A stretch of DNA of 62,587 nucleotides, taken from contig JBFLWV010000010.1 of assembly GCA_040757655.1 (NCBI GenBank), positions 1 through 62,587 of the forward strand, written 5' to 3'. This DNA comes from Patescibacteria group bacterium (lineage in GTDB: Bacteria > Patescibacteriota > Patescibacteriia > 2-02-FULL-49-11). Made by a program: the position numbers and the translations under genes. Positions within the stretch are counted from its first letter, which is position 1. Every line of letters begins with the position of its first letter. A model generated the notes under the pieces. The model saw only the letters and a program-made list of their open reading frames with translations. It was not told where the DNA came from and made no database searches. This document shows positions 30,219 to 62,448 of this stretch, one piece after another.

Positions 30219-30232
30219 ACCTTCCTTAATGT

Positions 30233-33677: not shown

Positions 33678-33688
33678 AAATACGTTTA

Positions 33689-33952: not shown

Positions 33953-33983
33953 TGGTCGGCTATCCATACACGGATGTCCCCAC

Positions 33984-34575: not shown

Positions 34576-34586
34576 ATCATTTACAT

Positions 34587-34742
34587 TCACGCATTCCACC
34601 TGAATTCTCCCGTTTCCAGATCGCCGTATGCCAAGTGTGCGTACTCCTCATCTCCGGCTTTGCGGCATTCATTGCTTAAGGTCAAAACCGCCAGTTTCGC
34701 GCTTTCTTCAGTTAATTTTAAACGATCAATCGGGATATACCT
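34587..34742 (-). pseudogene. Copy 1 of the 3' coding end of the 474-aa gene (tail variant alpha, last 47 codons)
   Basis: Translates IDRLKLTEESAKLAVLTLSNECRKAGDEEYAHLAYGDLETGEFRWNA*. Near-identical to 35619..35765. Confidence 0.85.
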
Positions 34743-34756
34743 CAAGATTATTAACA

Positions 34757-34846
34757 TTGACAAAAAAAATCATAATGCTATGCTGTCAATGTACCTCCCT
34801 TATCTAAGGCTCTCTCGAGTACAGGTAACGGGGGTGTTTTTATTAT
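34757..34846 (+). ncRNA. Predicted ~55-nt transcript convergent on the DUF3800 gene
   Basis: TTGACA (34757-34762)-16 nt-TATGCT (34779-34784). Then a structured segment ending in gggggtgtttttatt, about 10 nt before the DUF3800 stop. Confidence 0.45.
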
Positions 34847-34855
34847 GAACAGTTC

Positions 34856-35467
34856 TTATAAGTGCAATAATATCTTCTCTTTATTCATGATCATTTCGTG
34901 ATAGTGGGGATCGCCCCGCTCATACTCTCTAAAAATACTCCCCGCAATCATATCTGCTATCTGGATCATCGCATTGTTCCGAGAACGTTGCTGCCTGATT
35001 TTTCTAACCACATTCTTGCTCATATACTGTTTAAGCACCGCATTGAATTCTCGCCGATGGATTTGAGCTGACGCTTCGTCAATGACGAGGACAGATTCAA
35101 CTATCGGCGGATCGTTATCATAAAACAATCTTCTCACTGCTTCGCAGTAGAGCTGATGGGGATGGAACTTCAGTGCTGGCGCGGTAAGTTCACGTTTATC
35201 AACAACGACTGCCTTATAGCGGATTAACCGCTCTGATAACGTACGCAAAAACGCTTCGCGAAATGTACGCTTGCATCGTGAAAACTTAAACTCAAAATCC
35301 TGCGCCAATCGCAATTCCAACCTTAACCTTTCCATTGTAATCTCAATCTCCTTCGCCTCGCATCCAAGAAACACCGCTGCCACTACAAAAAATCTCGAGG
35401 ATCCGCGTTCAAACTTGAAACCACAATCACTTGCTTCGTCTATCCAGAGATATGATATTGTCTCCAT
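34856..35467 (-). CDS. DUF3800-family protein
   Basis: N-terminus YLWIDEASDCGFKFERGSSRFFVVAAVF and C-terminal IQIADMIAGSI are typical DUF3800 motifs. The ATG at 35467 is preferred. Confidence 0.7.
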   Translation of the reverse strand: METISYLWIDEASDCGFKFERGSSRFFVVAAVFLGCEAKEIEITMERLRLELRLAQDFEFKFSRCKRTFREAFLRTLSERLIRYKAVVVDKRELTAPALKFHPHQLYCEAVRRLFYDNDPPIVESVLVIDEASAQIHRREFNAVLKQYMSKNVVRKIRQQRSRNNAMIQIADMIAGSIFREYERGDPHYHEMIMNKEKILLHL

Positions 35468-35618
35468 AATTATAGCACAATAATCTATCTCATATCCTAG
35501 CTGCAATTTCCTTAAGTCATACAAGCATCACTCACTCGCGATCGCGAGTCTTTGATTCCTTTCGGATTTAAGCCCTTCAGACACATGTCTGCGTAAGTCC
35601 GCGCAAGTCCGCGTTTAC

Positions 35619-40514: not shown

Positions 40515-41050
40515 CATAACAAATCCAAATCTAATCCAAATCCCAAAATCCAAATACCAAAATGATATCTGTGAATCCAAAATTATCGACGGCCTTTCAT
40601 GGTAACGATACTTGCCCCAATAATTCTGGCAAACTCATTAGCCTCGCGAGAGAAGGCTTCAACTTCGTCTCGATGTGAGACGCTCACTGTTTCCTGGAGC
40701 ACCATGAGCCAGTAGATCGTCTCATTGGCTGATTTAAGTGCAATCTCGAAAAAATGAATGTAATCTCTTTTTGAACCTGAACCTTTCGCCTCTACGACGT
40801 TCGCACCAATTGAACCTCCACTGCGGATTACTTGATCGACGATTGACCACAGCAGTCTATTCTCACCTTTAATCCTCTCCCCAAGCTTGATGATATGCAC
40901 GGTGAATTGGATCAACCTTCTGATGAAATCCTTTTTGAATTGTTCTCTATCATTTTGGGATTTGGGATTTGGGTTTTGGATTGGCATAGAGGCTGTGGGG
41001 ATTTGGAATTTTATTTGACATTGGGATTTGGAAATTGGGATTTAATGCGT
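40515..41050 (-). mobile_element. Full-length palindromic element carrying a four-helix-bundle gene
   Basis: Left arm aaatccaaatctaatccaaatcccaaaatccaaataccaaaatgata; right arm tatcattttgggatttgggatttgggttttggatt, plus a second arm set. A miniature derivative lies at 19972..20103. Confidence 0.7.
40583..40987 (-). CDS. Four-helix-bundle protein (23S rRNA IVS-protein family)
   Basis: Motifs QVIRSGGSIGANVVEAKGSGSKRDYIHFFEIALKSANETIYW. The N-terminus MPIQNPNPKSQND is encoded by the repeat arm. Confidence 0.85.
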   Translation of the reverse strand: MPIQNPNPKSQNDREQFKKDFIRRLIQFTVHIIKLGERIKGENRLLWSIVDQVIRSGGSIGANVVEAKGSGSKRDYIHFFEIALKSANETIYWLMVLQETVSVSHRDEVEAFSREANEFARIIGASIVTMKGRR

Positions 41051-41116
41051 TGATGCTGAGATTTAAGTAGGTGTATAGAGTTTAGGGTTTAGAGTTTAGG
41101 ATTTAGGATTTTTCAA

Positions 41117-44100
41117 CTATGGTTTCACCCTGATCTCTCCCCCATACGGCGTCCAGACAGGCAAAGGTTGGTCGCTCACGCCAGTAGGAGCGCGGTAAAA
41201 TACATTATCGTACCGATAGGGTGCAGCGCAAAGAGAACCCGCGCATACGGCTGGCGCGCAGTTCCCATTGCACAATCCCCAGTTATCCGTCACCTGCACG
41301 AAGGGCTTGAATTTACATACTCCTTCACTACTATCCCAGCAATTTTCATCCAACGTGAGCCCATTGACTACCGTACCGCAGTCAGGAAGGTCGTCCCGCC
41401 CCACTTGCTTCCCACCCTCGCCGCACTCGTACGTATGCGTCACGAGGTAAGGGTCTGATAGGGTGGACCGCTCCGCGCTCCGCAATCCCGCCACCTCGGT
41501 GACCGGCGAACCATCGCCCCACTCCACCCGATATCCTGCAAGCGGTTTATGGTCAGGATGGACGTTTGCAGTAAACTCAAGCACCACTCCCCCTGCGTGC
41601 TCGATGATATTCGGCAAATACTGTATCCTCATCTCCCCTACGCGCGGCTGCATAGAAGGACCCGTACTGAGCCCTACGGTATCCCACGCCTCCACGGTAC
41701 AGGCGGCCGGGACATTGGGGCACGTCGTGGCATTATACTTGCACGAACAGAACGCATATTTCTTCGTGCGCTCATCAAACGCCCACACCCCATATACTTT
41801 CGCGAAAAGCTTCTTTAAGGTATCTTCACCTTTTGCTGCTCCCATGAACGTTGCATCATACATTGCCTTATAGAAATTCTCCCACAACTTCACCTCCTTT
41901 GGCTTATCAACCCCGGCGCAAATCCCTGGGGATCCCACATCACCCTCCACATAGCCACAATCGGGGTTCTCCTCGCATGATTTTCCTACCCGATCATCGC
42001 CACCTGTAAGACACACCCGTCCCCCTTCTTTTCTGGTAGTGACACTACAGGTACCATACACATGACATGCAGCATCATTTCCGATATCAGAAGCAGAACA
42101 AGAAGTAGCTGATAAATTATCACATCGATACTCCGGCTCATACTCACCCTGTATTTCTATACACTGACCAATATCATCGCAATCATTATCCGTTGCACAC
42201 CATTGGCCTTCTGTGCCGGCAGGAGCGGCGCACGTTTTTATGAAACACGTTCCTGTCAACTGTTGCGTACGGCAATCACTGTCATATTGACAATACAGAC
42301 TTGGCCCTGTGGCAACTGCAGCGCCCGTGGCATCCCTCCAGTCACCGCAACCACCTACAAACCTCATGCCATACGGCGATCCTGCGCGATACTGATAGGG
42401 AGGTTCTGCGCCTGCCTGCTGCGTGAGCGGCGCTTCCACGTAGGCAGGCCCTGGCCACGTGGTAGGATCACCCGGGTCAACGCCAGCACCTTTGGGAGGC
42501 ACCAAACCGCCATATGGTTCATAGTCTTGGGTATACGGATAGTGCGGCGCATTATACGGAGGCCTGAATCCTCCTGGCTCCAACCGTGAGGTATAAGGAA
42601 TGGCGTCTCCCTCGGGCGTCACTACCTGCGCAATCACATTGCACCGCTCTCCGCGGTAGGTGATCGTTGCGGAAGAGGCTTTGATCCTCCCATCGCCGCT
42701 GACGTTTTTAAAGAACACTTCTAGGTTCGTTAATTCATCATAGGGGTTAAATTCCAAACGCGCGGATACCATTCTACAATCATCTTCATGATCATTTGCC
42801 TCGCACCGCAGATAGGTATGAGGGTTGTGCGCCGCAGTAACGCCGCCTCCACAATTCTTTGAAGAAAGGAAACCATCGCTCCAATGATCCTTATTCATCT
42901 GATTCAGGATAATCGTCCCTTTTTTCCCCTCAAGAGAGGGATTTATATCCTTGCTGTCATTCCGCATGAAGCACGCCCAAGGATCGTCTTTAGTATCATC
43001 CATTTCTATATCATTGACCCGCACTTCAATAATTTCATTCTTTAAGATATGCAACCCTATCACGTTTACACTAAACAATTTCCTGTCCGCCCCTCCATCC
43101 CACTGTAGGTAGTTGGCGCTCATGATCTTGCGATCATAGTAAGGCCAATCGCCCTTTGATTCCAGGCAATAGTACAAAGGTTTCCTACCTTTATAGCCTA
43201 CCACCTCTCCGCCCGCAAACAGATCAGAAGCTCCCAAGAGCACATCCACCGGCCACCAAATCAAACAGTCATTCTTGGAATCAAACGCGCGCTCCGGGTC
43301 AGGATCTTGCCGCTCCACGCAATACCCTTTCCATCCACGGTACTCCTTGCCGGTTTCCTCCTCCAAAAAATCACATGCGGGCGCGTCTGGTTTGGGATAG
43401 GTCCGGCAGGAGCGGGGGATGGTGCTCACCTTGGCGACCGTAAGCACCGGCTGGAGACTAACCTCATCAATATATATTGCCGAAGGCGATTCTGATGAAG
43501 AAGCTCCTTGGACAAATTGCAGGTTTGCCTGACCGCTTACCGAAAGGGGCAGTGCGCCGTCTTCCGCTTTCGTGCCAAGCCGCATCTGGTAGGTTGCCCA
43601 GCCATACCCAAGAGTCACTCGCTGTGCACCTTTGCCGATCACAAAATTATGGTAATCTCTCCCGTTCACGGCAAGCTGGACCGCAATGGTCTTATAGAGG
43701 CACGCCTGGTTCCTGTCTTTGTCCGGAATCCAAGGACAGTCAGCGCTGGTACTGCATGGTTCGTCGATATCTTCCTCGCAGTATCCTTCATTCTGGTCCG
43801 TACGCGCGCGGAAGGTCAGCATCAAAGGATCAAGACCCGGGGTGGTATTAAACGCGCCGAGCGGCACATATGCGCCTGACCACCGCGGCTCTCCTGGCAC
43901 TACTTTAAGCGCAAATGAAGAGTTCACCGTATCGCCGGGTTTGCGATACACGTAGAGACTCGCTTTGTTTTGCGCGCGCCAGGGTGAAGCATAGCCGCTT
44001 TCAAAATTTCCGTTTTGCACTTTCAACAACCTCCCCACTTCATCCATGCGCACATAAGGGTAAAGACCCTCTATGCGGGTATCAAGGATGCAAGTTTCTG

Positions 44101-46051
44101 TCGGGGGACATGAGGAATAACATCTTTGATTCGTGGTTGTCGAGCAGGTATTTGCCGCAGTACACGACTCTCCCGCAGGGCACGAAGGCGCGCATTTCTG
44201 CGTCTTCGTGATGGAACAGTGACCTTCGCCCCAATTAAGCCCCACCTTCGCATACCCTGATATATCCTTGATAAAGTGTACCTTTGAGGGGGTGTCAAAG
44301 GTAAGGTTTGCCCTGCCGGTTGATCCTTCAAGCGCGACAGGATTTGCGCAGTAGCCCATAGGGTCGAGCGCATCACAGATGCCAAGATCAAAACACAGGT
44401 CATCGTATTTGCCCTGTTGATTCTTCAAACGCACGGAAGACCTGCAGTAGAGCCAATTCTTGCACACGCGGTCGCGATCCACCTTCATGATCACATTCGC
44501 ATCCGGCTCGATCGCAGGGCAGGCGGGTACTGATACTCTCCAATATTTTGGGCCTGCACTCTCTGGTGGATTCGCAATTGCCGCGGTAATGTTGACGCAA
44601 TACTGGAAGCGGCATTGCGCGGGAGCAGTACAATCGCTATTACTGGTGCAGGTGTTAAAAGGCAGCTTTGAACATATACCATTCGTTAATGAAAGCGGTG
44701 TAGCCACCGTCGCGTGGGAAAGGCTGTACGTGTTATCAGTCCGTGAAGAAGCCGCTCCGCTTACTGTACAAGATCCGAGACCCCATGGGATGCTTTCCCA
44801 TGCTACTGTCCCAAGCGCAGGCTTTGTCGTGCCATAGGTCACACGGAAGGAGCGACACGTAATATCAGAGATACCCACGTCAATAATCCGCAATATGTCT
44901 GCTTCGCTCTCACTCACGATGAATTGTCCTTGGTAAGTCGCGTCCACATAACCAGTAGCAGTACAGGTGATCGTGAAATTATAAGTTGCGCCCGGCGTCA
45001 ATCCGCCCAACTCCACCTTATGGTTAATGGGAGGGTTGCCTGTGCCAGTACTTGACACGGGACCGCCGCTGGCGCCGGGGGGTTGCACTTGGGTGTACGT
45101 GGTATTACAACTCGCACCCACTGGCGTTTCAGGATCAGTGTTCCAAATAATCGTTTCTGTTCTCGGTGCTGAAGTCAAGCTATTGACACTCAGAATAGTC
45201 AGCTGTTCCATGGTGGGAGGTCTGCACGGCCTTGAGCAGCACACGGTGGTAGGATCAGCGTCTGGATATTCTGTACCGCCGTCATAACACCCCTCTCCTA
45301 CCCCGCAAATGAACCCTCCCCATCCATCAGGAGAAGGCGGTGTACAAGGAAGCGCGCCCACGATGGTATAGGAACCGTTGTGCACCTTTGTGCGGTCAAG
45401 GATATCCGCAGTACCGCCGTTGGACGCAACCATGACCACGTGGGAATCCGTGAGGTTGAATTCTACTGGGGTCGTGACAGGTAATGGATCAGTGGGAGGG
45501 ACGATGGTCCTGAACCTAAGTGATACAAAATATGCAGTTGTGCTTCTCTCCCCTGGATAGGGTGCGCCGCGCACGAGGTGTATGACATTACATCCCGGAA
45601 TCGTAGTAGGACAACTCGTGGGCGTACCTGCGGCTGCATTACCCGGCACCACTTCCCGCGTCACCTCTTCCGTAAAGAGCGAATCTCCAAGTTCAATGCA
45701 CCGATCCTCACCACTGACACAAATCTTGTGTGAAATATCAAGATATTGCGGATCGTAGAAAATATACATTTCCACCGCGTAAATATCCTGGGGGGTTGGA
45801 TTTATAATATCCACCTCCACACTAAGCGTAGCATTATTCGCCACCATGCCCGTGGCAGGTTTAAGCACCAACTCTGCATTAACAATTGCGGGAGGCGAAG
45901 GCGCTACCTGCGCGAGGATAAACCCTATCCCTGCCGCAACCGCCAAAAATATCACGATCTTCACCCACAGGGAAAGCGCGCTGAACCATCCTCTGAACCG
46001 CGTCCAGAGATAACGAGGAGTAAGCGTCATTTGATGCTGATCATTCGGCAT
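41117..46051 (-). CDS. Giant secreted or cell-surface protein (1644 aa): N-terminal TM anchor, cohesin-like domain, CBM4/9-like module, many Cys-rich segments
   Basis: TM helix VKIVIFLAVAAGIGFILAQV. The segment LVLKPATG..LSVEVDIINP..IYAVEMYIFYDPQYLDI is cohesin-like, and QNGNFESGYASPWRAQ is CBM-like. More than 90 Cys. Confidence 0.75.
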   Translation of the reverse strand: MPNDQHQMTLTPRYLWTRFRGWFSALSLWVKIVIFLAVAAGIGFILAQVAPSPPAIVNAELVLKPATGMVANNATLSVEVDIINPTPQDIYAVEMYIFYDPQYLDISHKICVSGEDRCIELGDSLFTEEVTREVVPGNAAAGTPTSCPTTIPGCNVIHLVRGAPYPGERSTTAYFVSLRFRTIVPPTDPLPVTTPVEFNLTDSHVVMVASNGGTADILDRTKVHNGSYTIVGALPCTPPSPDGWGGFICGVGEGCYDGGTEYPDADPTTVCCSRPCRPPTMEQLTILSVNSLTSAPRTETIIWNTDPETPVGASCNTTYTQVQPPGASGGPVSSTGTGNPPINHKVELGGLTPGATYNFTITCTATGYVDATYQGQFIVSESEADILRIIDVGISDITCRSFRVTYGTTKPALGTVAWESIPWGLGSCTVSGAASSRTDNTYSLSHATVATPLSLTNGICSKLPFNTCTSNSDCTAPAQCRFQYCVNITAAIANPPESAGPKYWRVSVPACPAIEPDANVIMKVDRDRVCKNWLYCRSSVRLKNQQGKYDDLCFDLGICDALDPMGYCANPVALEGSTGRANLTFDTPSKVHFIKDISGYAKVGLNWGEGHCSITKTQKCAPSCPAGESCTAANTCSTTTNQRCYSSCPPTETCILDTRIEGLYPYVRMDEVGRLLKVQNGNFESGYASPWRAQNKASLYVYRKPGDTVNSSFALKVVPGEPRWSGAYVPLGAFNTTPGLDPLMLTFRARTDQNEGYCEEDIDEPCSTSADCPWIPDKDRNQACLYKTIAVQLAVNGRDYHNFVIGKGAQRVTLGYGWATYQMRLGTKAEDGALPLSVSGQANLQFVQGASSSESPSAIYIDEVSLQPVLTVAKVSTIPRSCRTYPKPDAPACDFLEEETGKEYRGWKGYCVERQDPDPERAFDSKNDCLIWWPVDVLLGASDLFAGGEVVGYKGRKPLYYCLESKGDWPYYDRKIMSANYLQWDGGADRKLFSVNVIGLHILKNEIIEVRVNDIEMDDTKDDPWACFMRNDSKDINPSLEGKKGTIILNQMNKDHWSDGFLSSKNCGGGVTAAHNPHTYLRCEANDHEDDCRMVSARLEFNPYDELTNLEVFFKNVSGDGRIKASSATITYRGERCNVIAQVVTPEGDAIPYTSRLEPGGFRPPYNAPHYPYTQDYEPYGGLVPPKGAGVDPGDPTTWPGPAYVEAPLTQQAGAEPPYQYRAGSPYGMRFVGGCGDWRDATGAAVATGPSLYCQYDSDCRTQQLTGTCFIKTCAAPAGTEGQWCATDNDCDDIGQCIEIQGEYEPEYRCDNLSATSCSASDIGNDAACHVYGTCSVTTRKEGGRVCLTGGDDRVGKSCEENPDCGYVEGDVGSPGICAGVDKPKEVKLWENFYKAMYDATFMGAAKGEDTLKKLFAKVYGVWAFDERTKKYAFCSCKYNATTCPNVPAACTVEAWDTVGLSTGPSMQPRVGEMRIQYLPNIIEHAGGVVLEFTANVHPDHKPLAGYRVEWGDGSPVTEVAGLRSAERSTLSDPYLVTHTYECGEGGKQVGRDDLPDCGTVVNGLTLDENCWDSSEGVCKFKPFVQVTDNWGLCNGNCAPAVCAGSLCAAPYRYDNVFYRAPTGVSDQPLPVWTPYGGEIRVKP

Positions 46052-46739: not shown

Positions 46740-46809
46740 AGGGCAATTACTAATTGTGTTAAATTCCAAATCCCAATTCCATTTTGCATTTTGGGATTTG
46801 GATTTTGGA

Positions 46810-49800
46810 TTAATACTTATTTTGTTGGTACCCGCACGTTCCTCCAGCGTCACAATCGCTATCAATAACGCACGGCTGCGGATCCCCTGCGGGAGAGTTT
46901 GAACAGTACTTTGCCGTGATGATCGTATCAGGTCCTCTGCCAGTCTCATGCAGCCCCACGCAGCCCGCTTCAGGATCCAGCACGCCGTTGCACTCACCCT
47001 CCTGGCTCGAAATTTTATCTTTTGGCGCATAGAGGAAATCGCATGCAACCACCGAACAGGTGCCGCCAGGACCGGGGGGAGTTGCCGCAGTACTGCACTG
47101 CGCATCGGTGGTGCAGGTGAAGGGAGTGGCACCTTCACTGCATACCTTTTGTCCATACACAAGCGTTTTATTGCACCCCTCTGGCAGCCGCGGATCCTGA
47201 TACTCGGTGCAGGTGGATACTTGTGGACTGCACTTTGCCACTGCATTTGAGCATGTTCCCCTACTTCCTGGTCGAGCAAAATCAAGACAATCATTATCGC
47301 TCACGCAGAGATTCCTTTCCTTATACGTCACGCCATTGGCGTCAGCGGTGAGATTTTTGCTTCTTCCCCCAATGCAGTGACCCAAAGGACGGCACGTCGC
47401 GCCTGCAGGACACCTCGTACCCACGTTGGCAGCAGTACAACTCCGATACGGCGCGTTGGAACACACACTCGTCACGGTGGGACAAGGAATAGAAGAGCCG
47501 ATCTCATACCACGTGGTCACGGTGCCTTCTGTCTTATATTCACAGACATAGCCGGTAGGATCTTTAAATACTTTCCTTGACTGGCTCGCATCAGTGCCGG
47601 TCCATGTGGCGCAATATTCTTCGGGCAGTGTGCACAGGCTCGTACTCTTCCCTACCTCGTCGCTGAATGTGTCTGGATCAACCATCACGATCGTATCCGC
47701 AAACGTGCTCGTGGCAACCCCGCTCGCGGAATTCCAAAATGCCACGCTTGCCTGCCCCAGCAGGGTACATCCTGCCTGCGTGTTCGTGCATGAGGCATCT
47801 ATGGAAGGAATGAGGTAGGTGAGCGTATCCGCAGGCACGGTGAGCGCTGAGGCGGGGCTATAGATGCGCCCTGCGTCAGTGGAGTTATAGAATGTCTGCT
47901 CAGCAGGATTGCTTGAATTCTGCGTGTCAATCAAGACCTCGCATCCCACAAACCGTTCAGGACATAGCGTAGAAAATTGTTTGAAATAGAAGGTTGTATC
48001 TGTCCCTCCTTGCCGGTACGCGGCGCAGTTGAGCTGGGCGCCTATCACTGTGGCTATTGGCGGAACTTGACTATTCTGATCGCAGGTCTCTGGCGTATAC
48101 CAACTATCCTTGATCGCGTACACCTGCGCAGTTTGCAGGACCACATTGTCAAGGTAGGTATAGGCGAAAGGACTCATCCTCACTTGCGCAGGCCCGGCGC
48201 TTGTTGCAGTAAACGGCCCAAGCGTATATGAGTTCCACGATGTGGTTACATTAGCCGCGTAGGACGCGGGAGTGGCCACCGGCACTTGTCCGGTGTTATC
48301 AACAAGTGAAACAGTTATCGTGCCCGCGGTATCAGCCCGCGCCCAGAATTTCACGTTATAGAGCTTGCCGGTTTCAAGAGAAAACCCAGGCCGGTAGGCA
48401 TTCAGTCCAACAATTTTGAGCGAATGGTTATTCAACACCGCTGCTTCATTGGAAACGGAAAGCGTGGTGGCCGCATCAGGATGCCACGGCTCATACGATC
48501 CGCTCTCGAACGTATCAGAGAAAAATGTCTGTACATTGCCGCCATCGCCTCTCCGATACTCACGGCAACCGGCAGAGAAGGGTGCGCATGTGGTGCTATA
48601 GGTGGGAATTGCCTTATATACGCAATTATTTCCCTGCATGGTTCCCCGATGGCTCGTACACCACGCGGCTGCGGTCTCGAGGAGCGTACGCCGCAGGGGA
48701 TGGCAATCGTCTGATGCGATGATCACTTTTGAGAAATAACGGTAGTAGTAATTAAGGTTGCCATCAATAAACTGCCGACAATCAAGATCGGGGGTGGGGG
48801 AATTGAAATCATTTTCACAATCAATGCCATCAGGGCTCCGCGACGGATCTACTTGCTTTTGTCCTGTCACCGCGGGCGCGGTATTCGGGCCGCCGCTGGG
48901 AATCAATGTCCACACCTTCAGCTGAAAACCCGTCGTATCTGATCCTTCCCACGTGTAGTAGGGCGCCTCGCCGCTCCCGAGCTGTTCGCATTGCATGAGC
49001 GCCGTGTAGTACTCCTTGCCCTCGCCTCCCCGCGCCACCTCATCAAGGTTCGTGAATTCATCGCACCCCACGTCTTGCGCAGGACAGGATTGAGCGGTAG
49101 CGGGTATGAAATTAACCCCAGGACTAAACCCAATGGCTGCTTCAAAATTCGTTTCCCTCTGTTCAAACTTTTTATATCCCACGCACTCTGCCGGACACTC
49201 ATCATTCCAATCCGTGACATTGCCTTCCACATCAATAGAGGCCATGGTTGGCTTTGCAGGAATTGCCACTTGCAATTCCGTCGGATCAAGCGGCGTATAA
49301 AGGTTACATCCTACATACTTACTCTTTTCCTCAAGCGACGCCGCGGGATCTGAAGAACCAATGCATGATTCGGCAGTGTTATTTAAGTATACCGACTCAG
49401 TTTCTCGCTCATTAAAATTCCGGTAAGAATCAGTGCCCGCGATGACATTATTAAGCAGCGTAGTGTATTCCGCGGGTGTGAGGAGGTGTTTCGCCTCATC
49501 CTTATGCCGTATGCGAACATAATCTTTGCACCCCACTGCGTTCGGCTCTTTACACGCAGCTTCAGCCATATTTAAGGCGCTTTGGTTTAAGAAATAATTA
49601 TCTGCTGCTGCCACGCTATTCACCCATCCTCCCGCATCCCTGCGTCTTGTGTAGCGGCGGCACCCTTCGGACGCCGTTCGCGTACAACCCTCTGCATCAG
49701 TGGTATTCATGAGGAAGCTTACTGCTTGCTCTGATCCTGTTTTTTTAAGCTCCAAACATGAGGCAAACTGCGCAGGACACGACTCGCCCAAGGTCCACAC

Positions 49801-51747
49801 TTGTTTTTCCTTCACGCAATATCCATACGCGAGACACCCTTCTGACCCCCCTTCAACTATACACGTACGTTCCTTACTGCAGACATTTGCGCGATCGATA
49901 GGAGGGGTGGCGATATCGGGTGGGCAGGCAATAAAGCCATCGCCATTCGTGTCAGTATCGCAGATGGGCGTTTGAAGTTCGCTCGTGTTGTCTTCACCTG
50001 GCCCCTCGCTGTAGCAGCGGCTAAGAGGCGCTTTCAGAATCCAGTTCGGATCTACCAACCGGCAATATGGTGAGAGCGGACGACCAGCTTGTCCACATTC
50101 GTCATACGCGTCTAGAAGCTGACCTAATGTCACCATTTGTCGCGAGAAATCTCTCATATAGAGGGCAGCAAGCTCCCATCCCACGGGCACGATGCGGTAC
50201 TTCCGCATAATCACAATCGAGCGGTAGGGAATGCCTTGGTCCCACTTTGGCTGCGCGCCATTGGTTTCAAATCCAAAGGTCAAGTTGCGGGAGAGGAGTC
50301 CTTTGCATTTTGGACAGCTGCCAATGGGTTCCACTGCTTCGCGGAGAGACAGTTTTTGTTCAATCGCCTGACGGAAATCGTCGGTGAGCACGCAATGCTC
50401 CTGCAGAGGGACTCCTGATCCTGAAGCAGTGCAGGTGGACAATTCATTTAAGAGATCTATCGCGCTATCGGTCGTGAAATCCGTTTTCATGATATCGGCA
50501 AATGCAAGTTGCGCGCCTGCGGTAAAGCCGATGAGGCCGCTTGAAGGGCCGTAGCTTGAGAGCGAACGGTCGGTTGCCGGATTAAACCCTCCGCTCGTGA
50601 TGCGCTTGAAGAGTTTGGAGACCAAGGTATTGGTAAAGACCTTAAACGCGTCTGCAACCGCATTGCCGGTAAAGGTGAGGTAGGTGCTGTAGGATTTCTC
50701 GGTGAGCGCTTTTTCGATCGCTTCGGATTTGAGCGATGCGGGTGTCTTGATTTCACCAGTCACCAAATCTTCCACCGGTTGGAAGCCCTTTGTTTCCTCA
50801 CGTTTATAGATGCCTGCTTTCTGCGCCTCAATTTTAGTCCGATACCCATCTGCGACGATAGAGAGCACAGCGCCGAGATCATTCTCCGAAGGATTGAAGT
50901 ACGTGGCAAATTTGGGGAGGTCTTTGAGTTTCAACCGCCGATAGTTGGTGCGGAAAATATCCATGCCATTGACTCGCACCGATGCCTGCGGTAAATTCTT
51001 TCTAATCTGACTAAAGGTACACAAAGGCTTTGAAGGCTCTAAAATTTCACGCGCCGACAGCTTGATTTTTGCTTCAATATCTACAGAAATGGGGGTGCAG
51101 AGAGTAAGCTTCCGATGAAGCGTATCGCGGAGTTTTGCACGGCTCCCTGCGGTTTTCGCGTTCTGCGCTTGTATTTTCTCATTCTTCGCGAGACAAGCCA
51201 TGAACTTACTTATCAATTGTTGTTCTGCTGGCGTATTTGGATTTGCAGGTTGACCTGTTTCGGGATCATAGAAAGCTTCACAAAAAGGTCCTGCGCCTAA
51301 ATCAACGATCTCGCCACTTAAACAATATTTCGCGCACTCTTCAAGTTGTCCTGCCATGGTCGCCACGTCAATCCCTACTTCAACGCCTGTTGTTAAAAAT
51401 TCCCCGAGCGCTTGATCGCCTACCCCGCCTTCGCCAAAAAGATAATTGCCCCAACCCTTCGTAATAAAAGCAGGCTTGCCGCCTTGTCCGCCGCTTCCCA
51501 AGTAATTCGCAGTGTCATACGCAATCCTATTCAAAAACATCTGCAACCCGCTCTTGTACGCGACCGCCACCACGGTTTTTAAGGCTTTATCTACTACTTT
51601 CCAAACCTTATCTGCAATATCCACCACCGGCATACCAGTCGCAAACACGCTACGCGGGTGCGATAATGTGCCAGCCGCAATAAATCCCAAAACCGTGAGG
51701 AGGGTGATGATAGTAATCGCGATCTTCCGTGGTGGCCTTAAAAACAT
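46810..51747 (-). CDS. Giant secreted or cell-surface protein (1645 aa): N-terminal TM anchor, CBM4/9-like module, Cys-rich repeats
   Basis: TM helix IAITIITLLTVLGFIAAG and the CBM-like segment FSDTFESGSYEPWHPD...LYNVKFWARAD. Many CxxC-type pairs. Confidence 0.75.
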   Translation of the reverse strand: MFLRPPRKIAITIITLLTVLGFIAAGTLSHPRSVFATGMPVVDIADKVWKVVDKALKTVVAVAYKSGLQMFLNRIAYDTANYLGSGGQGGKPAFITKGWGNYLFGEGGVGDQALGEFLTTGVEVGIDVATMAGQLEECAKYCLSGEIVDLGAGPFCEAFYDPETGQPANPNTPAEQQLISKFMACLAKNEKIQAQNAKTAGSRAKLRDTLHRKLTLCTPISVDIEAKIKLSAREILEPSKPLCTFSQIRKNLPQASVRVNGMDIFRTNYRRLKLKDLPKFATYFNPSENDLGAVLSIVADGYRTKIEAQKAGIYKREETKGFQPVEDLVTGEIKTPASLKSEAIEKALTEKSYSTYLTFTGNAVADAFKVFTNTLVSKLFKRITSGGFNPATDRSLSSYGPSSGLIGFTAGAQLAFADIMKTDFTTDSAIDLLNELSTCTASGSGVPLQEHCVLTDDFRQAIEQKLSLREAVEPIGSCPKCKGLLSRNLTFGFETNGAQPKWDQGIPYRSIVIMRKYRIVPVGWELAALYMRDFSRQMVTLGQLLDAYDECGQAGRPLSPYCRLVDPNWILKAPLSRCYSEGPGEDNTSELQTPICDTDTNGDGFIACPPDIATPPIDRANVCSKERTCIVEGGSEGCLAYGYCVKEKQVWTLGESCPAQFASCLELKKTGSEQAVSFLMNTTDAEGCTRTASEGCRRYTRRRDAGGWVNSVAAADNYFLNQSALNMAEAACKEPNAVGCKDYVRIRHKDEAKHLLTPAEYTTLLNNVIAGTDSYRNFNERETESVYLNNTAESCIGSSDPAASLEEKSKYVGCNLYTPLDPTELQVAIPAKPTMASIDVEGNVTDWNDECPAECVGYKKFEQRETNFEAAIGFSPGVNFIPATAQSCPAQDVGCDEFTNLDEVARGGEGKEYYTALMQCEQLGSGEAPYYTWEGSDTTGFQLKVWTLIPSGGPNTAPAVTGQKQVDPSRSPDGIDCENDFNSPTPDLDCRQFIDGNLNYYYRYFSKVIIASDDCHPLRRTLLETAAAWCTSHRGTMQGNNCVYKAIPTYSTTCAPFSAGCREYRRGDGGNVQTFFSDTFESGSYEPWHPDAATTLSVSNEAAVLNNHSLKIVGLNAYRPGFSLETGKLYNVKFWARADTAGTITVSLVDNTGQVPVATPASYAANVTTSWNSYTLGPFTATSAGPAQVRMSPFAYTYLDNVVLQTAQVYAIKDSWYTPETCDQNSQVPPIATVIGAQLNCAAYRQGGTDTTFYFKQFSTLCPERFVGCEVLIDTQNSSNPAEQTFYNSTDAGRIYSPASALTVPADTLTYLIPSIDASCTNTQAGCTLLGQASVAFWNSASGVATSTFADTIVMVDPDTFSDEVGKSTSLCTLPEEYCATWTGTDASQSRKVFKDPTGYVCEYKTEGTVTTWYEIGSSIPCPTVTSVCSNAPYRSCTAANVGTRCPAGATCRPLGHCIGGRSKNLTADANGVTYKERNLCVSDNDCLDFARPGSRGTCSNAVAKCSPQVSTCTEYQDPRLPEGCNKTLVYGQKVCSEGATPFTCTTDAQCSTAATPPGPGGTCSVVACDFLYAPKDKISSQEGECNGVLDPEAGCVGLHETGRGPDTIITAKYCSNSPAGDPQPCVIDSDCDAGGTCGYQQNKY

Positions 51748-52141: not shown

Positions 52142-52272
52142 AAAATCTTTATATCACAATGAGGAGAATGACGAGGAGAGAGAATAATTTACGACGAGAA
52201 GAAAAATGCACCATATCCTATAAATCCAAATCCCAAAAACCAAAATCCAAAATGATAATAAATAATGTAGAA

Positions 52273-52650
52273 TTATCGTCTATCCTTCATGGTAAGTATG
52301 CTTGCGCCGATTATCTTCGCAATCTCCACGTTTTCACGGTACAAAACTTCAATTTCGTTCCGCAACCCGCTCTCCACGGTTTCGCGCAGAACCATTAACC
52401 AATAGGTCGTCTCATTCGCGGATTTGAGCGCAATTTCAAAATAGTGGATGTAGTCTTTCTTGGAACCAGAACCTTTCGCTTCCACGACATTCGCGCCGAT
52501 CGAGCCGCCGCTGCGAATGGACTGATCCACGAGCGACCATAAGAGTTTATTGCGCTCTTTGACCTTTTCTCCCAATCTAATGAGGGCTATCGTAAACCGT
52601 ATGAGCCTGCGGATAAAGTCCTTTTTGAATTGTTCTTTATCATTTTGCAT
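52273..52650 (-). CDS. Four-helix-bundle protein (23S rRNA IVS-protein family)
   Basis: Clear sequence similarity by eye to the protein at 40583..40987 (QSIRSGGSIGANVVEAKGSGSKKDYIHYFEIALKSANETTYW). Flanked by inverted repeat arms. Confidence 0.85.
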   Translation of the reverse strand: MQNDKEQFKKDFIRRLIRFTIALIRLGEKVKERNKLLWSLVDQSIRSGGSIGANVVEAKGSGSKKDYIHYFEIALKSANETTYWLMVLRETVESGLRNEIEVLYRENVEIAKIIGASILTMKDRR

Positions 52651-52676
52651 TTTGGGATTTGGATTTTGGATTAGGG

Positions 52677-55096: not shown

Positions 55097-55187
55097 GCAA
55101 AACCCAAAATCCAAATACCAAAATGATAGACCAAAATTTATAGATTATTCATTTTCATTTTGGATTTTGGGATTTGGATTTTGGGTT
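55097..55187. repeat. Miniature palindromic element (caaaatgata ... core)
   Basis: Left arm caaaacccaaaatccaaataccaaaatgata; right arm ttcattttcattttggattttgggatttggattttgggtt. Confidence 0.8.
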
Positions 55188-55188
55188 A

Positions 55189-57837
55189 TTATTGCGCCAC
55201 AATATTGAGCAGCTTCCCCTTCACATATACCTTTTTCGTGACCGTAATTCCTCTCAAGTACTTCTGAATTTCCGGCGCTGCTCCCACCGCCGCAAACACC
55301 TCTTCCTCTCCTGCACCTCGGAGGACTTCCACCATTCCTCTCTTCTTTCCGTTGATCTGGATGACCACGCTTACCTTCATCTCAAGTATCAACCGAGGAT
55401 CAAATTTCGGCCACGGCTCCTTAAAAATACTCGACACGTTTTCTGAATCATCTGCGTTGATCTGCGTATTAGATCTGCGTTGATCTGCGGCATGCGCAAA
55501 GCGCATGCGTTGCCACAGCTCTTCGGCTATATGAGGGGCAAAAGGAGCAAGGAGTACAATGAGTAAAGTATAATAATCACGCATCGCGGGATCCCGCAAG
55601 TCAGCTTTGACAAGCTCATTGGTATAGGTCATGAGCTGCGCAATCGCCGTGTTGAATTTGAAACTTTCAATATCCTCTGTCACTTTCTTAATCGTCTGAT
55701 GCGCCAGCATCTGTAAACGCTTTTTCTGAACCGCAGGATATTTATTAATAAATGTCTCCTTAGTTTTGAGTTTTGAGTTTTGAGTTTTGAGTTTGTTACC
55801 CAACATCCACACTCTCTCCAAAAATCTCCTCACGCCCACGATGCTGTTCATCGACCAAGGATACGCGCCCACCGTCGCATACGGCCCGATGAAGGCGAGA
55901 TACATACGAACCGCATCAGCCCCCAGCCGCTCCACTTGCTCGTCAGGATCCACGACGTTTCCGTGCGACTTGGACATCTTCTGCCCATCGGGGCCTAAAA
56001 TAATACCCCGATTAAGTCTCCGCACGTACGGCTCACACCATGGAACCAATTTCAACCTCTCCATCGCTTTGATCCAAAACCGCGAGTAAAGCAAGTGCAT
56101 AGTCGTATGCTCGGCGCCGCCCGAATAAAGGTTGACGGGCATCCACTGCGCCATTTTCTCTTGCGCGGCAAATACTTTTTCATTTCCCGGATCGGTATAA
56201 CGCAAAAAATACCATGATGAATCAATAAAGGTGTCTAGCGTATCCGTTTCCCTCTCGGCCGCTCCCCCGCACTGCGGGCACTTTACCCGCACCCAGTCTG
56301 CGGCTTTCGAGAGCGGCGACCTCCCGTCATCGCGCGGTTTATAATCATCTAATTCAGGCAGCTCAACTGGCAGCTGATCACCAGGAACGGGAATCACTGC
56401 GTGCATAACACCATCAATCTCACTGCCAACTAATTTTGGATTTTGGATTTTGGATTTTGGATTTTCCCAGCATCTACGACAGTAGATGATGGGAATGGGG
56501 CATCCCCAATACCGCTGGCGTGAAATCAGCCAGTCGCGCAGTTTATAACTTGTGGATCTTTTGCCTAACTTATTTAACTCCAACCATGCTACAATCCTCT
56601 CCCTCGCGGTTTGAGAATCCAAACCAGTAAATTTACCAGAGTTCACTACGGCGCCCTCGCCTTCATACGCACCTTGTACGGGCGAACGGCCGTTCGCCCC
56701 TACCTCTGGACTGATAACCTTCCGTATCGGCAGATGAAACTCTTGAGCAAAAGCAAAATCCCTTGCATCATGACCAGGCACCGCCATAATCGCCCCCGTC
56801 CCGTATCCCATGAGCACGTAATCAGCGACCCATATAGGGATTTCCTCCTTAGTTGCCGGGTTCACCGCTCGTATCCCCGCCAACTCAACACCGGTTTTCT
56901 CCTTCTGTAGCTGCCCCCGTTCCATTTCAGTCTTGGTCTTCGCCCGCTCAATATATTCTTTCACTTCTTCTAGATTCTTGATTCCAGATTCTAGATTCTC
57001 GATAAGCGGGTGCTCCGGTGCCAATACAAGGTACGTCGCACCAAAGATGGTATCTGGTCTGGTGGTAAAAACTTCAACGTACAAATTTGAATTTGTGATT
57101 TGGGATTTATTTGGAAATTGGAAATTGGAAATTGGAAATTTCACAAGAGCTCCTTCGCTTCTCCCAATCCAGTTCCGCTGCGCTTCCTTTATCTCCTCCG
57201 GCCACGGAAGCGTTTCTAAATCATGTAATAGCGCATCTGCAAAATCTTTGATCTTCAGCAACCATTGTTTCATCTTCCGCTGCATGACTGCTGATTCGCA
57301 CCGTTCGCATCTGCCGTCGATAACCTGCTCATTCGCGAGCACGGTCTTGCACGAATGGCACCAGTTCACCAAGCTATCCGCTTGATAGGCGAGCCCCGCT
57401 TTGAAAAACTGAAGGAAGATCCACTGGGTCCAGCGATAATAATCAGGTTCGCACGTCACGACTTCCCGTTCCCAATCAAACGAAGCGCCCATGCGCCTGA
57501 GTTGCTTCCGCATGTACTCAATATTGTCATGCGTCCACGTGCGGGGATTGATGCCGCGCTTCAATGCGGCGTTTTCTGCGGGAAGTCCGAACGCGTCAAA
57601 GCCGATGGGAAAAAGCACATTGAACCCGCGCATGCGCATGAAGCGCGCAAAAATGTCAGGAATGGCAAATGCATACCAATGGCCGATATGGAGATTGCCT
57701 GAAGGATAGGGAAATTCAACGAGCAGATAAAAATTCTTTTTACCCCTCACTACATCTGCAGCATGGAATATGCCTTGTTCCTCCCAATGCTTCTGCCACT
57801 TTGGTTCAATTTGTTTGTGATCGTAGGTTGAGGACAT
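55189..57837 (-). CDS. leuS: Leucine--tRNA ligase, carrying four repeat-derived in-frame insertions
   Basis: HIGH motif (PSGNLHIGH), KMSKS motif (QKMSKSHGN), CP1 editing-domain motif TTRPDT and a zinc motif CPQCGG. Confidence 0.97.
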   Translation of the reverse strand: MSSTYDHKQIEPKWQKHWEEQGIFHAADVVRGKKNFYLLVEFPYPSGNLHIGHWYAFAIPDIFARFMRMRGFNVLFPIGFDAFGLPAENAALKRGINPRTWTHDNIEYMRKQLRRMGASFDWEREVVTCEPDYYRWTQWIFLQFFKAGLAYQADSLVNWCHSCKTVLANEQVIDGRCERCESAVMQRKMKQWLLKIKDFADALLHDLETLPWPEEIKEAQRNWIGRSEGALVKFPISNFQFPNKSQITNSNLYVEVFTTRPDTIFGATYLVLAPEHPLIENLESGIKNLEEVKEYIERAKTKTEMERGQLQKEKTGVELAGIRAVNPATKEEIPIWVADYVLMGYGTGAIMAVPGHDARDFAFAQEFHLPIRKVISPEVGANGRSPVQGAYEGEGAVVNSGKFTGLDSQTARERIVAWLELNKLGKRSTSYKLRDWLISRQRYWGCPIPIIYCRRCWENPKSKIQNPKLVGSEIDGVMHAVIPVPGDQLPVELPELDDYKPRDDGRSPLSKAADWVRVKCPQCGGAAERETDTLDTFIDSSWYFLRYTDPGNEKVFAAQEKMAQWMPVNLYSGGAEHTTMHLLYSRFWIKAMERLKLVPWCEPYVRRLNRGIILGPDGQKMSKSHGNVVDPDEQVERLGADAVRMYLAFIGPYATVGAYPWSMNSIVGVRRFLERVWMLGNKLKTQNSKLKTKETFINKYPAVQKKRLQMLAHQTIKKVTEDIESFKFNTAIAQLMTYTNELVKADLRDPAMRDYYTLLIVLLAPFAPHIAEELWQRMRFAHAADQRRSNTQINADDSENVSSIFKEPWPKFDPRLILEMKVSVVIQINGKKRGMVEVLRGAGEEEVFAAVGAAPEIQKYLRGITVTKKVYVKGKLLNIVAQ

Positions 57838-57849: not shown

Positions 57850-57943
57850 TAAAAATCAAAAGTCAAAAATCAAAATTATGGAGTCCCGACCGAGTCGGGA
57901 CGTAATACCTTCATTTTGCATTTTGAGATTTGCACTTTGCATT
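57850..57943. repeat. Palindromic intergenic element with gtcccgac-cga-gtcgggac core
   Basis: Core at 57883..57901. Arms aaaaatcaaaagtcaaaaatcaaaatt and ccttcattttgcattttgagatttgcactttgcatt. Confidence 0.8.
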
Positions 57944-61221: not shown

Positions 61222-62448
61222 CTATTCGTCGTGCCATGAATACAGAGAAAGATCAGCGCGCAGCTGTTGCCAGGGCGTAAAATCCCTCTTTTGCACATGA
61301 AATACGGCAGCAGCTGCAATCATGGCAGCATTGTCGGTGGTATACGATGTAGCAGGTATGAGGTATCTGGCATGAGGTAGTTGAATTGAAATTGCTGCGG
61401 CGAGTTGTCGGCGCAGTTGTGAGTTCGCAGCGACGCCGCCTCCTAAGAGGACTGTTTTTGCGTTGTGCTGTTTGGCCGCGCGGATGGTTTTCTCAACCAA
61501 CACATCCACGACTGCTGCCTGGAAGGAGGCACAGAGGTCTTTGAGTGTAGAAGTTGGAATATGGAAGTTAGAAGTTGGAAGTTGAGGGTCGTGGGTGCGT
61601 GAGTGTTTTTTTTGTTTTTTGTTTCTGGATTCCGAAACTAGTTCGGGATGACATTGAAGGGTATATAAAACGGCGGTTTTGAGACCGGAGAAGGAGAAAT
61701 CGTAATCGCCGCTCTTTATCATACCGCGGGGAAAGTCAAATGCCTGGGGGTCTCCTAGTCGCGCAAGGCGGTCTATTGCCGGCCCGCCCGGATAGGGAAG
61801 CCCCAAAAGCTTTGCCACTTTGTCAAACGCTTCTCCTGCCGCATCATCGCGCGTGCGGCCAAGCAATGTGTATTTAAGGAAATCCTTTATGAGAATAAGT
61901 TCAGTGTGCCCACCGGAGACCATGAGGCCAATGGCTGGGAAATAAATATCATTTATTCCATAGTTTTGAGTTTTGAGTTTTGAGTTTTGAGTTTGGTTCT
62001 GCGTTGCAGGGAGCAACGCAGAGTAGAGGTGCCCTTCTAAGTGATTGACCGCAACAATGGGTTTCTTCCACACCGCGGCGAGCGTGCGGGCAGTTTCGAC
62101 ACCGACGGAGAGCGCGATCTGGAGCCCCGGCCCCACCGTGACGGCGAGGGCGTCGAGGTGAGGTATTATAAATCTGGAATTATGAATTATAGTTCCGCGT
62201 GTTGTTCCTAATTCCTGATTCTTTATTCCTAATTCTTCGTATGCTTTGGCGAGCGCCTCTTCTATGACTGGTATGATAAGCTCCACCTGTTTCCGCGCGG
62301 CAACTTCTGGCACTACGCCGCCGAATTTTTTGTGGATCTCAATTTGCGACGAAACGACATTGGAATGTACGGCAAAGCTGCCGTGGGAATACTCCACCAC
62401 CGCTGCTGCGGTCTCATCGCAGGAGGTTTCAATGGCAAGAATAATCAT
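61222..62448 (-). CDS. tsaD: tRNA N6-adenosine threonylcarbamoyltransferase TsaD, carrying three repeat-derived insertions (408 aa versus ~340 typical)
   Basis: ILAIETSCDETAAAVV, VSGGHTEL and GGVAANS motifs. Confidence 0.95.
   Translation of the reverse strand: MIILAIETSCDETAAAVVEYSHGSFAVHSNVVSSQIEIHKKFGGVVPEVAARKQVELIIPVIEEALAKAYEELGIKNQELGTTRGTIIHNSRFIIPHLDALAVTVGPGLQIALSVGVETARTLAAVWKKPIVAVNHLEGHLYSALLPATQNQTQNSKLKTQNYGINDIYFPAIGLMVSGGHTELILIKDFLKYTLLGRTRDDAAGEAFDKVAKLLGLPYPGGPAIDRLARLGDPQAFDFPRGMIKSGDYDFSFSGLKTAVLYTLQCHPELVSESRNKKQKKHSRTHDPQLPTSNFHIPTSTLKDLCASFQAAVVDVLVEKTIRAAKQHNAKTVLLGGGVAANSQLRRQLAAAISIQLPHARYLIPATSYTTDNAAMIAAAAVFHVQKRDFTPWQQLRADLSLYSWHDE

Follow-up and report, generated by a model that had tools for sequence, protein, structure and literature searches.

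Repeat Segments within an Essential Synthetase Gene

How do tandem repeats with a unit of 7 nucleotides come to lie in frame within an essential gene, and what becomes of the peptides that they encode? The question is raised by the leucyl-tRNA synthetase (LeuRS) gene, leuS, in a contig of 62,587 nucleotides from an uncultivated Patescibacteria group bacterium (JBFLWV010000010.1), which we refer to as the window and in which 4 segments of the coding sequence are built of the same repeats that occupy the spacers between the genes. Taken as a whole, these segments are in our view probably best explained as translated, tolerated loops that belong to a dispersed repeat family and have passed the filter of translation.

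The leuS gene was located on the minus strand (55189-57837) and consisted of an intact open reading frame (ORF) of 2649 nucleotides. The 882-amino-acid protein contained all of the LeuRS domains in Pfam, including the class I catalytic, editing, and anticodon-binding domains, the HIGH motif (amino acids 50-53) and the KMSKS motif (amino acids 620-624) were both intact, and the match to the Thermus thermophilus LeuRS (1h3n) had an E-value of 3e-231, which agrees with the original prediction that the reading frame is undisturbed. It was also noted that the leucine-specific domain (T. thermophilus residues ~577-634) is missing from the LeuRS of the window and from its relatives in the candidate phyla radiation (CPR); at amino acids ~616-621, the alignment leaps from T. 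thermophilus residue 580 to residue 638 over 5 query residues.

The relatives of the LeuRS identified the host as a member of the Patescibacteria, the nearest one (P0002) being 70% to 75% identical in sequence and 65 amino acids shorter. We aligned 17 LeuRS sequences, that is, the window and 16 relatives, and made codon alignments with the 3 closest contigs, L081, L165, and L166, all of which share the gene order LysM/M23 gene-leuS-sua5 with the window. These near relatives came from a protein search plus contig look-ups alone, and scans of contigs from genomes and metagenomes for closer relatives of leuS gave only LeuRS genes of at most 51% identity.

The coordinates and peptides of the 4 segments were as originally predicted, but the unit length had to be corrected: units of 8 bp were absent, and the proposed ttttggat and ttttgagt were miscounted from the period-7 units ATTTTGG and AGTTTTG, each present in 4.7 copies. 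Insert A (57079-57141, minus strand) encodes amino acids 233-253, KFPISNFQFPNKSQITNSNLY, in the entry hairpin of the editing domain, and contains a perfect (AATTTCC)x4.3 array at 57111-57140 (unit TTGGAAA, 100% matches in Tandem Repeats Finder, TRF), which is adjoined by a degenerate AAATCCC/AAATCAC stretch at 57081-57110. Insert B (56401-56469, minus strand) is located right behind the first CxxC of the second zinc knuckle and encodes amino acids 457-479, WENPKSKIQNPKLVGSEIDGVMH; only ~35 of its 69 nucleotides correspond to the perfect (CCAAAAT)x4.7 array at 56433-56465 (TRF unit ATTTTGG, 100% matches). At site C (55732-55797, minus strand, amino acids 681-702), the variable loop that begins the anticodon-binding domain is overwritten by a perfect (AAACTCA)x4.7 array at 55762-55794 (TRF unit AGTTTTG, 100% matches). 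Insert D (55441-55500, minus strand) comprises 60 nucleotides for amino acids 780-799, RFAHAADQRRSNTQINADDS. The ATCTGCG array predicted here was present at 55450-55489 but irregular, with imperfect copies of the GCAGATCAAC and ATCTGCG types, a period of 10-13, and spacings of 10, 13, and 10 nucleotides. Peptides encoded across the leuS inserts include ENPKSKIQNPK, LKTQNSKLK, and SNTQINADDSENVSSIFK.

In the alignment with the T. thermophilus LeuRS, segments A, B, and D fell into gaps of 11, 23, and 21 amino acids and were thus clean insertions, whereas site C aligned as a variable stretch with about 2 additional codons, and is better described as a variable loop overwritten by repeats than as one of the 4 insertions that had been proposed. 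The codon alignments with the 3 closest contigs gave gains of 23 codons for B, 20 for D, 8 for C, and 9 to 11 for A. Inserts B (23 amino acids) and D (20 amino acids) were unique to the LeuRS of the window among the aligned relatives, B being absent also from T. thermophilus, and sites A and C were loops that varied in length and sequence in all of them, with other arrays at these sites in some. By eye, the codon alignments revealed no target-site motif or target-site duplication common to the inserts.

A fifth heptamer-periodic stretch in leuS, located at 56968-57003 on the minus strand (TCTAGAA-type, 5.1 copies, 82%) and encoding ENLESGIKNLEE, was also present with unchanged length in the closest relative, L081, and is therefore not an insertion. 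In addition, a near-perfect GC-rich palindrome of 28 nucleotides, GTACGGGCGAACGG/CCGTTCGCCCCTAC, at 56676-56703 codes for VGANGRSPVQ, in a region of the editing domain that is variable; the palindrome showed no indel relative to L081, and the predicted local distance difference test (pLDDT) score was below 50 at amino acids 380-385. The idea that a whole palindrome had been inserted into leuS was rejected, since none of the inserts has an inverted partner and this sole strong internal palindrome is not an indel.

A Heptanucleotide Family in Genes and Spacers

A total of 76 arrays were identified by TRF in the window, of which 49 had a period of 7 or 14 (41 and 8 arrays, respectively), as compared with a mean of 1.3 and a maximum of 3 such arrays in 30 dinucleotide-preserving shuffles. 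A classification of 50 non-overlapping period-7 arrays placed 18 inside genes, 14 between genes, and 18 at gene edges, and the units were of the TTTTGRN / NYCAAAA type. The density of period-7 arrays was 0.78 per kb in the window, 1.11 in L081, 0.76 in L165, and 0.69 in L166, against a median of 0.044 in 166 other loci.

The long operon on the minus strand has 38 spacers, about 25 of which contained imperfect palindromes of 80-110 nucleotides, in which an A/C-rich heptamer arm is followed by a center and a T/G-rich heptamer arm. The center consists of a small GC hairpin, GTCCCGAC..GTCGGGAC, or of GATAG..CTATC, and the RNA folds of the intergenic palindromes were much more stable than those of shuffled sequences, with z-scores of -3.5 to -7.3. 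Two of these elements, neither assigned to a strand, flank leuS: one in the spacer between leuS and sua5 (55115-55188, z-score -3.5), with an A/C-rich heptamer arm, a center, and a U/G-rich arm, and the other upstream of the gene (57851-57943, z-score -4.3), where the heptamer arms enclose the GC hairpin GTCCCGAC..GTCGGGAC. The spacers flanking leuS in the relatives also contained palindromes with heptamer-type arms, although of different sequence. A second family has arms with a period of 10-12 (ATCTGCGT), as at 2599-2723.

BLAST searches of the inserts against the window confirmed that each segment matches repeats elsewhere in it. At site C, all 35 of 35 nucleotides agreed with those of a tsaD array (E=2e-15), the two even sharing an imperfect first unit, and the identity to several intergenic arms was 89% to 96%. 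Insert B was 90% to 93% identical to at least 8 intergenic arms, and insert A was 89% to 93% identical to 4303-4330 and to intergenic 22749-22776, the latter in a match region extending over 22749-22798. Insert D matched intergenic 2634-2649 and the arrays of 3 other genes. No inverted partner was found for any of the leuS inserts, which represent single arms of 30-70 nucleotides. In comparison with shuffled sequences, the inserts showed no fold (z-scores of +0.5, -2.0, +0.15, and -0.55), and in the fold of the whole transcript they were unpaired or paired just locally. An Rfam gathering search of the window identified 3 tRNAs and nothing else, with no intron, other family, or rRNA.

G-quadruplex formation was rejected as a general explanation for the repeats. 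Four G-tracts are provided by arrays of TTTTGGG, TTTGGGA, and TAGGGTT, but most units, such as AGTTTTG, TTTGAGT, and CATTTTG, contain single Gs. Read in another phase, the unit of the TAGGGTT array (5 copies, 41076-41111) becomes TTTAGGG, the telomere repeat of the plant type, which is probably a coincidence among the units of the TTTTGRN family. Both strands of this array contain stop codons, and it is confined to intergenic space. It was also noted that a segment of ~60-100 nucleotides (..GAATCGCGATTTTTGAGGGCTCTCATCGTCCCGCGTGAGAATCGCGG..) recurs in 3 long spacers, at 9831-10032, at 13414-13667, and in inverted orientation in 649-1091, and that it represents a separate dispersed repeat unrelated to the heptamers. 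A literature search on heptanucleotide or tandem repeats in Patescibacteria or CPR bacteria found no description of them.

Arrays in Other Genes

The tsaD gene (61222-62448) contained 3 repeat-built insertions relative to the Thermotoga maritima TsaD, one of which, of 17 amino acids, includes the perfect (AAACTCA)x4.7 array at 61962-61994 on the minus strand. The recG gene contained the in-frame insert QIQNPKLVPSQVAGSKIQN (16104-16159, plus strand), in which 2 direct AAATCCA arms surround a small GC hairpin and which falls within the DEAD domain. In the gene for a DsbA-like thioredoxin, arrays were located at 22045-22256 on the minus strand, with (CCCAAAA)x4.4 at 22045-22075 and ACGCAGAT-type repeats at 22193-22256. 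Further arrays were found in a DUF2079 gene, in an unannotated gene of 432 amino acids, and in the C-terminal tail of Sua5.

The ORFs of leuS, tsaD, recG, and the DsbA-like and DUF2079 genes were all intact despite their internal arrays, and no gene in the window was broken at an array. A candidate frameshift at the array between the ORFs at 1092-1388 and 1396-2598 was rejected, as pilC ends normally and the array (junction 1354-1397) is intergenic.

Sequence Patterns Consistent with a Proposed Translation Filter

On the coding strand, 12 of the gene-internal arrays were A/C-rich and only 1 was T/G-rich (binomial p ~0.003), as compared with a ratio of 5:7 for the intergenic arrays. Furthermore, 16 of the 18 gene-internal units were free of stop codons in every phase of the sense strand. 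Since 7 is not divisible by 3, any array with at least 3 units encodes an identical cycle of 7 amino acids in every frame, and the frame in which the array is entered is therefore irrelevant, so that the total length and the strand alone count. The CCAAAAT array, for example, encodes the cycle P-K-S-K-I-Q-N in all 3 frames, and CAAAACT is likewise open in all of them. The A/C-rich strand yields K/N/Q/S/T/P/I, whereas the opposite strand yields F/L/W/G/C or TGA. The original prediction had stressed that slippage would frameshift an essential gene; the gain or loss of one unit would indeed shift the frame, but at 4-5 copies there is no paradox.

The strand and stop-codon biases are what selection acting through translation would yield. 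In an AlphaFold2 (AF2) model of the LeuRS, the pLDDT was below 50 at amino acids 243-250 (A), 688-700 (C), and 790-800 (D). The absence of a fold, the stop-free units, the strand bias, and the low-confidence loops favor translated, tolerated loops over removal after transcription. Of the 2 alternatives considered in the original prediction, tolerated surface loops thus find support in the restriction of B and D to one lineage, the placement of A and C in variable loops, the low pLDDT values at A, C, and D, the same in-frame arrays in other genes, and the 12:1 bias. Handling after transcription, in turn, found no support: the inserts do not fold, Rfam gave no intron, and none of the genes is interrupted at an array.

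Turnover of Arrays among Relatives

Among arrays of at least 4 copies, 5 of the 11 genic ones were 100% perfect, as opposed to none of the 10 intergenic ones. Being perfect at the nucleotide level, these genic arrays are either young or homogenized. At site A, the perfect arrays, in the window as in L081, begin at conserved K-F codons and differ in their units (AATTTCC in the window versus AAAGTTC, 4.4 copies, in L081), and the distant relative L082 contained CTAAAAG in 3.4 copies. Site C contained a 21-nucleotide tandem duplication in L166, derived from native codons that are retained by L081, and AAGGAAT in 3.9 copies instead in L165; L165 and L166 are sisters that are 88.5% identical. One third of the amino acid differences between the two were concentrated in the loop at site C.

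The length of the site-A array was constant in 7 near-identical sequences from the L081 population, a sister species, taken from different assemblies, and one fragment with 95% identity contained point changes. The constant copy number in the sister species is consistent with purifying constraint. Hence, the arrays are stable inside populations and turned over between species. As for how they are created, two routes appear to be supported: existing arms may have been copied or used as templates in repair, as suggested by the identity of the leuS and tsaD arrays, and sequence may have been duplicated locally in a 7- or 21-nucleotide register, as suggested by L166 and the seeding at the K-F codons.

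PF05635 Genes in Heptamer-Array Cassettes

The window contained 5 genes for PF05635 proteins (23S-rRNA-intervening-sequence protein, a four-helix bundle), 4 of which were located within the loop of inverted repeats of 42-61 nucleotides that consist of heptamer arrays, with the arms 340-404 nucleotides apart. In the cassette at 52223-52672 (minus strand), the gene at 52273-52650 resides in the loop of a 44-nucleotide heptamer-array inverted repeat, and similar cassettes with inverted-repeat arms were identified at 40533-40982, 26405-26930, and 22750-23202. The start codon of the cassette PF05635 gene lies inside a CAAAATG unit. Inserts A, B, and C of leuS each match the arm types of different cassettes. 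All of the cassettes in the window sit between protein-coding genes, outside of a 23S rRNA helix.

Homologs with 87% to 59% identity were found in other CPR genomes, all of them flanked by heptamer-type inverted repeats of 43-52 nucleotides located 350-354 nucleotides apart, and here too the ATG falls within a CAAAATG unit. The PF05635 ORF was located in the loop of a terminal inverted repeat at all 5 of the loci tested from other genomes, and a period-7 array was identified by TRF in at least one arm at L167, L168, L169, L171, and L172, but in none at L170. The cassettes of the relatives were located at 5979-6421 in L167, 5977-6430 in L169, 2972-3425 in L170, and 2978-3417 in L171, and one cassette is a Kaiserbacteria copy in a different genomic context, between rpmB and a gene for a peptidase M50 protein. 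The PF05635 cassette is an element like the intervening sequences (IVS) of rRNA genes that occurs outside of rRNA and has been kept across CPR lineages and contexts. The spacer palindromes that contain no ORF look like short derivatives of the PF05635 cassettes. No description of such a cassette for CPR bacteria was found in the literature search.

A speculative possibility, which we consider unlikely, is that an active IVS-like cassette writes or copies perfect arm arrays of ~33 nucleotides into new sites, including essential genes, and that the four-helix-bundle (S23p/Avd-like) protein or a partner enzyme takes part in an as yet undescribed mechanism by which repeats are generated or home to new sites. 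If so, an active cassette would keep creating new protein loops and spacer hairpins.

The fifth PF05635-related gene (31647-32420) encodes a fusion protein of 257 amino acids, the bundle of which holds a large insertion; the gene contains a period-10 array at 31855-31894 and has no heptamer inverted repeats. Two tandem genes for proteins of ~1645 amino acids, with CBM_4_9 matches that are weak at best, were located at 41117-46051 and 46810-51747, and a PF05635 cassette is located behind one of them, a synteny that is kept in L167, L169, and L170. We also noted 3 identical arms of 31 nucleotides (AATCCAAAATCCAAATCCCAAAATGCAAAAT, minus strand) at 26907-26937, 46781-46811, and 52642-52672. Two of these have identical flanks that include the neighboring stop and start codons, which suggests that entire cassette ends have recently been duplicated or converted.

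Origin and Fate of the leuS Segments

The explanation that we favor, repeat-derived loops that are translated and tolerated, draws on features that can be observed directly, namely family membership, insertion status, the lack of a fold, the strand and stop-codon biases, recurrence across the clade, and turnover between species. The leuS segments are single A/C-rich arms, or fragments of arms, from a lineage-wide family of heptanucleotide (plus ~10-nucleotide) repeats, the arrays of which normally form the 2 arms of palindromes between genes and the terminal inverted repeats of the PF05635 cassettes. Copies inside genes would survive if their net length is a multiple of 3, if the strand that is read is free of stop codons, as for the A/C-rich heptamers, if the peptide is hydrophilic (K/N/Q/S/T/P/I), if the site is a permissive surface loop, and if no complementary arm is nearby, so that neither a long RNA duplex nor a terminator would form in the mRNA. 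The inserts in leuS would accordingly be transcribed, would appear in the LeuRS as translated loops of low complexity, and would be neutral or slightly deleterious passengers rather than functional modules, and we infer that they are near-neutral.

Several points weigh against this explanation. No transposase or target-site duplication was identified for the repeat family, the non-array half of insert B (34 nucleotides) had no match elsewhere in the window, and insert B was modeled with a moderate pLDDT of ~62-78 in an AF2 model that is itself shallow (17-sequence alignment, mean pLDDT of 72). Moreover, perfect genic arrays are not predicted by the simple copying of a degenerate intergenic arm; they suggest that the arrays were recently expanded or homogenized in situ, or that perfect arrays were supplied from beyond the window. 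The start at the K-F codons with differing units at site A fits a local genesis better than an insertion. A purely local origin, through slippage or duplication of native codons in a 7-nucleotide register, is possible but to our minds somewhat doubtful. Only additions of 3 units (21 nucleotides) would survive in an essential gene, giving 4.3-4.9 copies, and the likeness to the intergenic repeats would reflect a common mutational bias. Each perfect genic array does consist of 4 full units and a partial one (30-34 nucleotides), as predicted by 1.x native units plus 3, although the intergenic arms also peak at ~4.4 copies without any frame filter, and the gain of exactly 3 units in one step is atypical of slippage. 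The perfection of the genic arrays, and hence their youth, the plain duplication at site C in L166, and perfect units such as GAAGCCA at 30798 and AAAGTTC in L081 that have no intergenic counterpart are all in line with a local origin. A common bias is difficult to reconcile with the identity of site C and the tsaD array over 35 nucleotides that include an imperfect first unit, with the finding that CCAAAAT, CAAAACT, and CCCAAAA are the commonest units in intergenic or cassette arms, and with the matches of non-array or degenerate parts of A, B, and D to intergenic elements.

It is improbable that the K/N/Q-rich repeat peptides have been recruited for a function in LeuRS, such as contacts with tRNA or a partner, and are kept by selection. 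Repeat-derived peptides do occur at sites A and C in several lineages, with a copy number that is steady in the sister population, and lysine-rich peptides could favor RNA binding. Yet the units and peptides are wholly different between sister species at the same site, B and D are confined to a single genome, and these peptides recur in TsaD, RecG, and the DsbA-like protein, which are unrelated. The absence of synonymous drift in the perfect arrays marks them as young rather than conserved, and the loops at A, C, and D were modeled with low confidence. We consider it very improbable that the arrays are removed or bypassed after transcription, or that they pair with U/G-rich arms to form RNase III sites that regulate the leuS mRNA. 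Array B and the U/G arm in the downstream spacer could form a duplex of -30.6 kcal/mol, close to the -32.8 kcal/mol of the arm with its own partner, and related IVS elements are substrates of RNase III (PMC4990558), but no local structure was found at the inserts, and the global minimum free energy fold contained no long-range pairing. Furthermore, RNase III cuts without re-ligation and cannot restore an ORF, Rfam gave no intron or ribozyme family and Pfam gave LeuRS domains only, there is no gene interrupted by an array, and the filters on frame, stop codons, and orientation would be needless if the segments were untranslated. The window covers 62.6 kb of the genome, which leaves room for a paralog elsewhere. 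That leuS is a decaying copy backed by such a paralog, or that the arrays are misassembled, is nevertheless scarcely credible given the intact ORF with all of the catalytic and editing motifs, the 70% to 75% identity to the nearest ortholog, and the conserved synteny. The arrays, of 30-40 nucleotides, are also far below the read length, and analogous arrays are present in independent assemblies of the relatives.

Comparison with Known Repeat Systems

Rickettsia palindromic elements (RPEs) were reportedly described by Ogata and colleagues in 2000 as selfish repeats located in frame inside protein-coding genes. The RPEs resemble the repeats described here in that they are dispersed between genes as well as in frame within unrelated housekeeping genes with open ORFs, in a host with a reduced genome. 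The RPE inserts lie at positions compatible with the fold, and the leuS inserts may do so too, in view of their appearance as gaps in the alignments with 1h3n and the relatives and of the low pLDDT values at A, C, and D in the shallow AF2 model. The RPEs differ in that whole palindromes of 100-150 bp with a conserved peptide are inserted, rather than single non-folding arms of 30-70 nucleotides. Unlike the RPEs, the units in the Patescibacteria vary by site and between sister species; the hosts belong to different phyla and the sequences are not related. In-frame insertions of RPEs in Rickettsia genes are documented in PMC10969869.

Parallels to the unit length come from heterocystous cyanobacteria and from an rRNA-associated element. 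Cyanobacterial short tandemly repeated repetitive (STRR) heptanucleotides, said to have been described by Mazel and colleagues in 1990, also form genome-wide and mostly intergenic arrays of few copies that are tolerated in an essential gene (rnpB). Their units (CCCCAGT, TTGGTCA, and CAACAGT) are different from those described here, and their intragenic case concerns an RNA gene with no frame at stake. We know of no description that links STRRs to palindromes or PF05635 cassettes. The presence of STRRs inside the RNase P RNA gene is attributed to Vioque (1997) where that work is cited in PMC2858038. In Coxiella burnetii, the IVS has a terminal stem of 28 bp, is excised by RNase III, contains the heptamer GACAGAT before the S23p ORF in 2 to 3 copies, a number that varies among strains, and is regarded as selfish (PMC4990558). 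The cassettes described here likewise contain a PF05635 ORF in a long inverted-repeat stem loop, with heptamers by the start of the ORF (here the ATG in CAAAATG). The S23p IVS reside in 23S rRNA helices, whereas the cassettes are located between protein-coding genes in operons, have stems that consist wholly of heptamer arrays and are predicted from thermodynamics only, and have versions without an ORF that fill most of the spacers.

In the tandem repeats of Borgs, units internal to ORFs are always divisible by 3 (PMC9879509), while in the window the unit is 7 and the total length alone keeps the frame. The Borg repeats are similarly perfect, recent, A-rich, and fast-evolving, are located both between and within ORFs, arise independently at hotspots, and encode low-complexity segments, but they mostly concern extracellular proteins of an archaeal extrachromosomal element rather than essential housekeeping genes of a bacterium. 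In Haemophilus and Neisseria, phase-variable simple-sequence contingency loci concern surface or restriction genes that are not essential, and their repeats are present in many copies, the number of which varies visibly. As in the arrays described here, a unit internal to the ORF is not a multiple of 3 and a change by one unit shifts the frame. By contrast, the arrays of the window are located in essential genes in 4-5 copies, and the length was constant in the 7 sequences from the sister population.

Neighboring Genes in the Window

Genes for a type IV pilus (pilC, a pilB-like gene, pilM, and a weak, sub-threshold PilO-like match) and a cluster resembling a type IV secretion system (T4SS), with a TraG-like ATPase, PrgI, and T4SS pilins, were located in 1396-9830 and 18791-30248, and almost every spacer of these regions contained heptamer palindromes. 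An AbiEii toxin gene was identified at 17705-18385. Two paralogous genes with an NYN domain and a DUF3800 gene were located at 33159-35524, in a region of lower GC content (0.44), the spacers of which (32421-33158 and 33702-34065) contain long repeated upstream segments (TTAAACGTCCC..GGGCGGGCGTCGGTTAATTTTTAACGTTCTATCAAAATATGTTTC, twice). This region is possibly a duplicated defense or toxin-like module.

Implications

By analogy, the overall behavior of the repeats would be that of the RPEs, with dispersed repeats that are tolerated in frame in housekeeping genes. Some of the most constrained genes of a bacterium with a minimal genome, those for LeuRS, TsaD, and RecG, repeatedly take up tandem repeats with a unit that is not a triplet. 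The patterns suggest a simple rule for their survival, by which heptamers are free of stop codons in all frames of one strand and only total length and orientation matter. Such inserts make CPR marker proteins look more divergent than they are, and could mislead alignment-based phylogeny, the calling of gene starts, and homology modeling. The link to the PF05635 cassette is a more novel lead than the leuS inserts themselves: it ties the heptamers to an IVS-like cassette located between protein-coding genes, and offers a concrete system for the study of the origin and mobility of IVS/S23p elements, which have been in question since ~1990.

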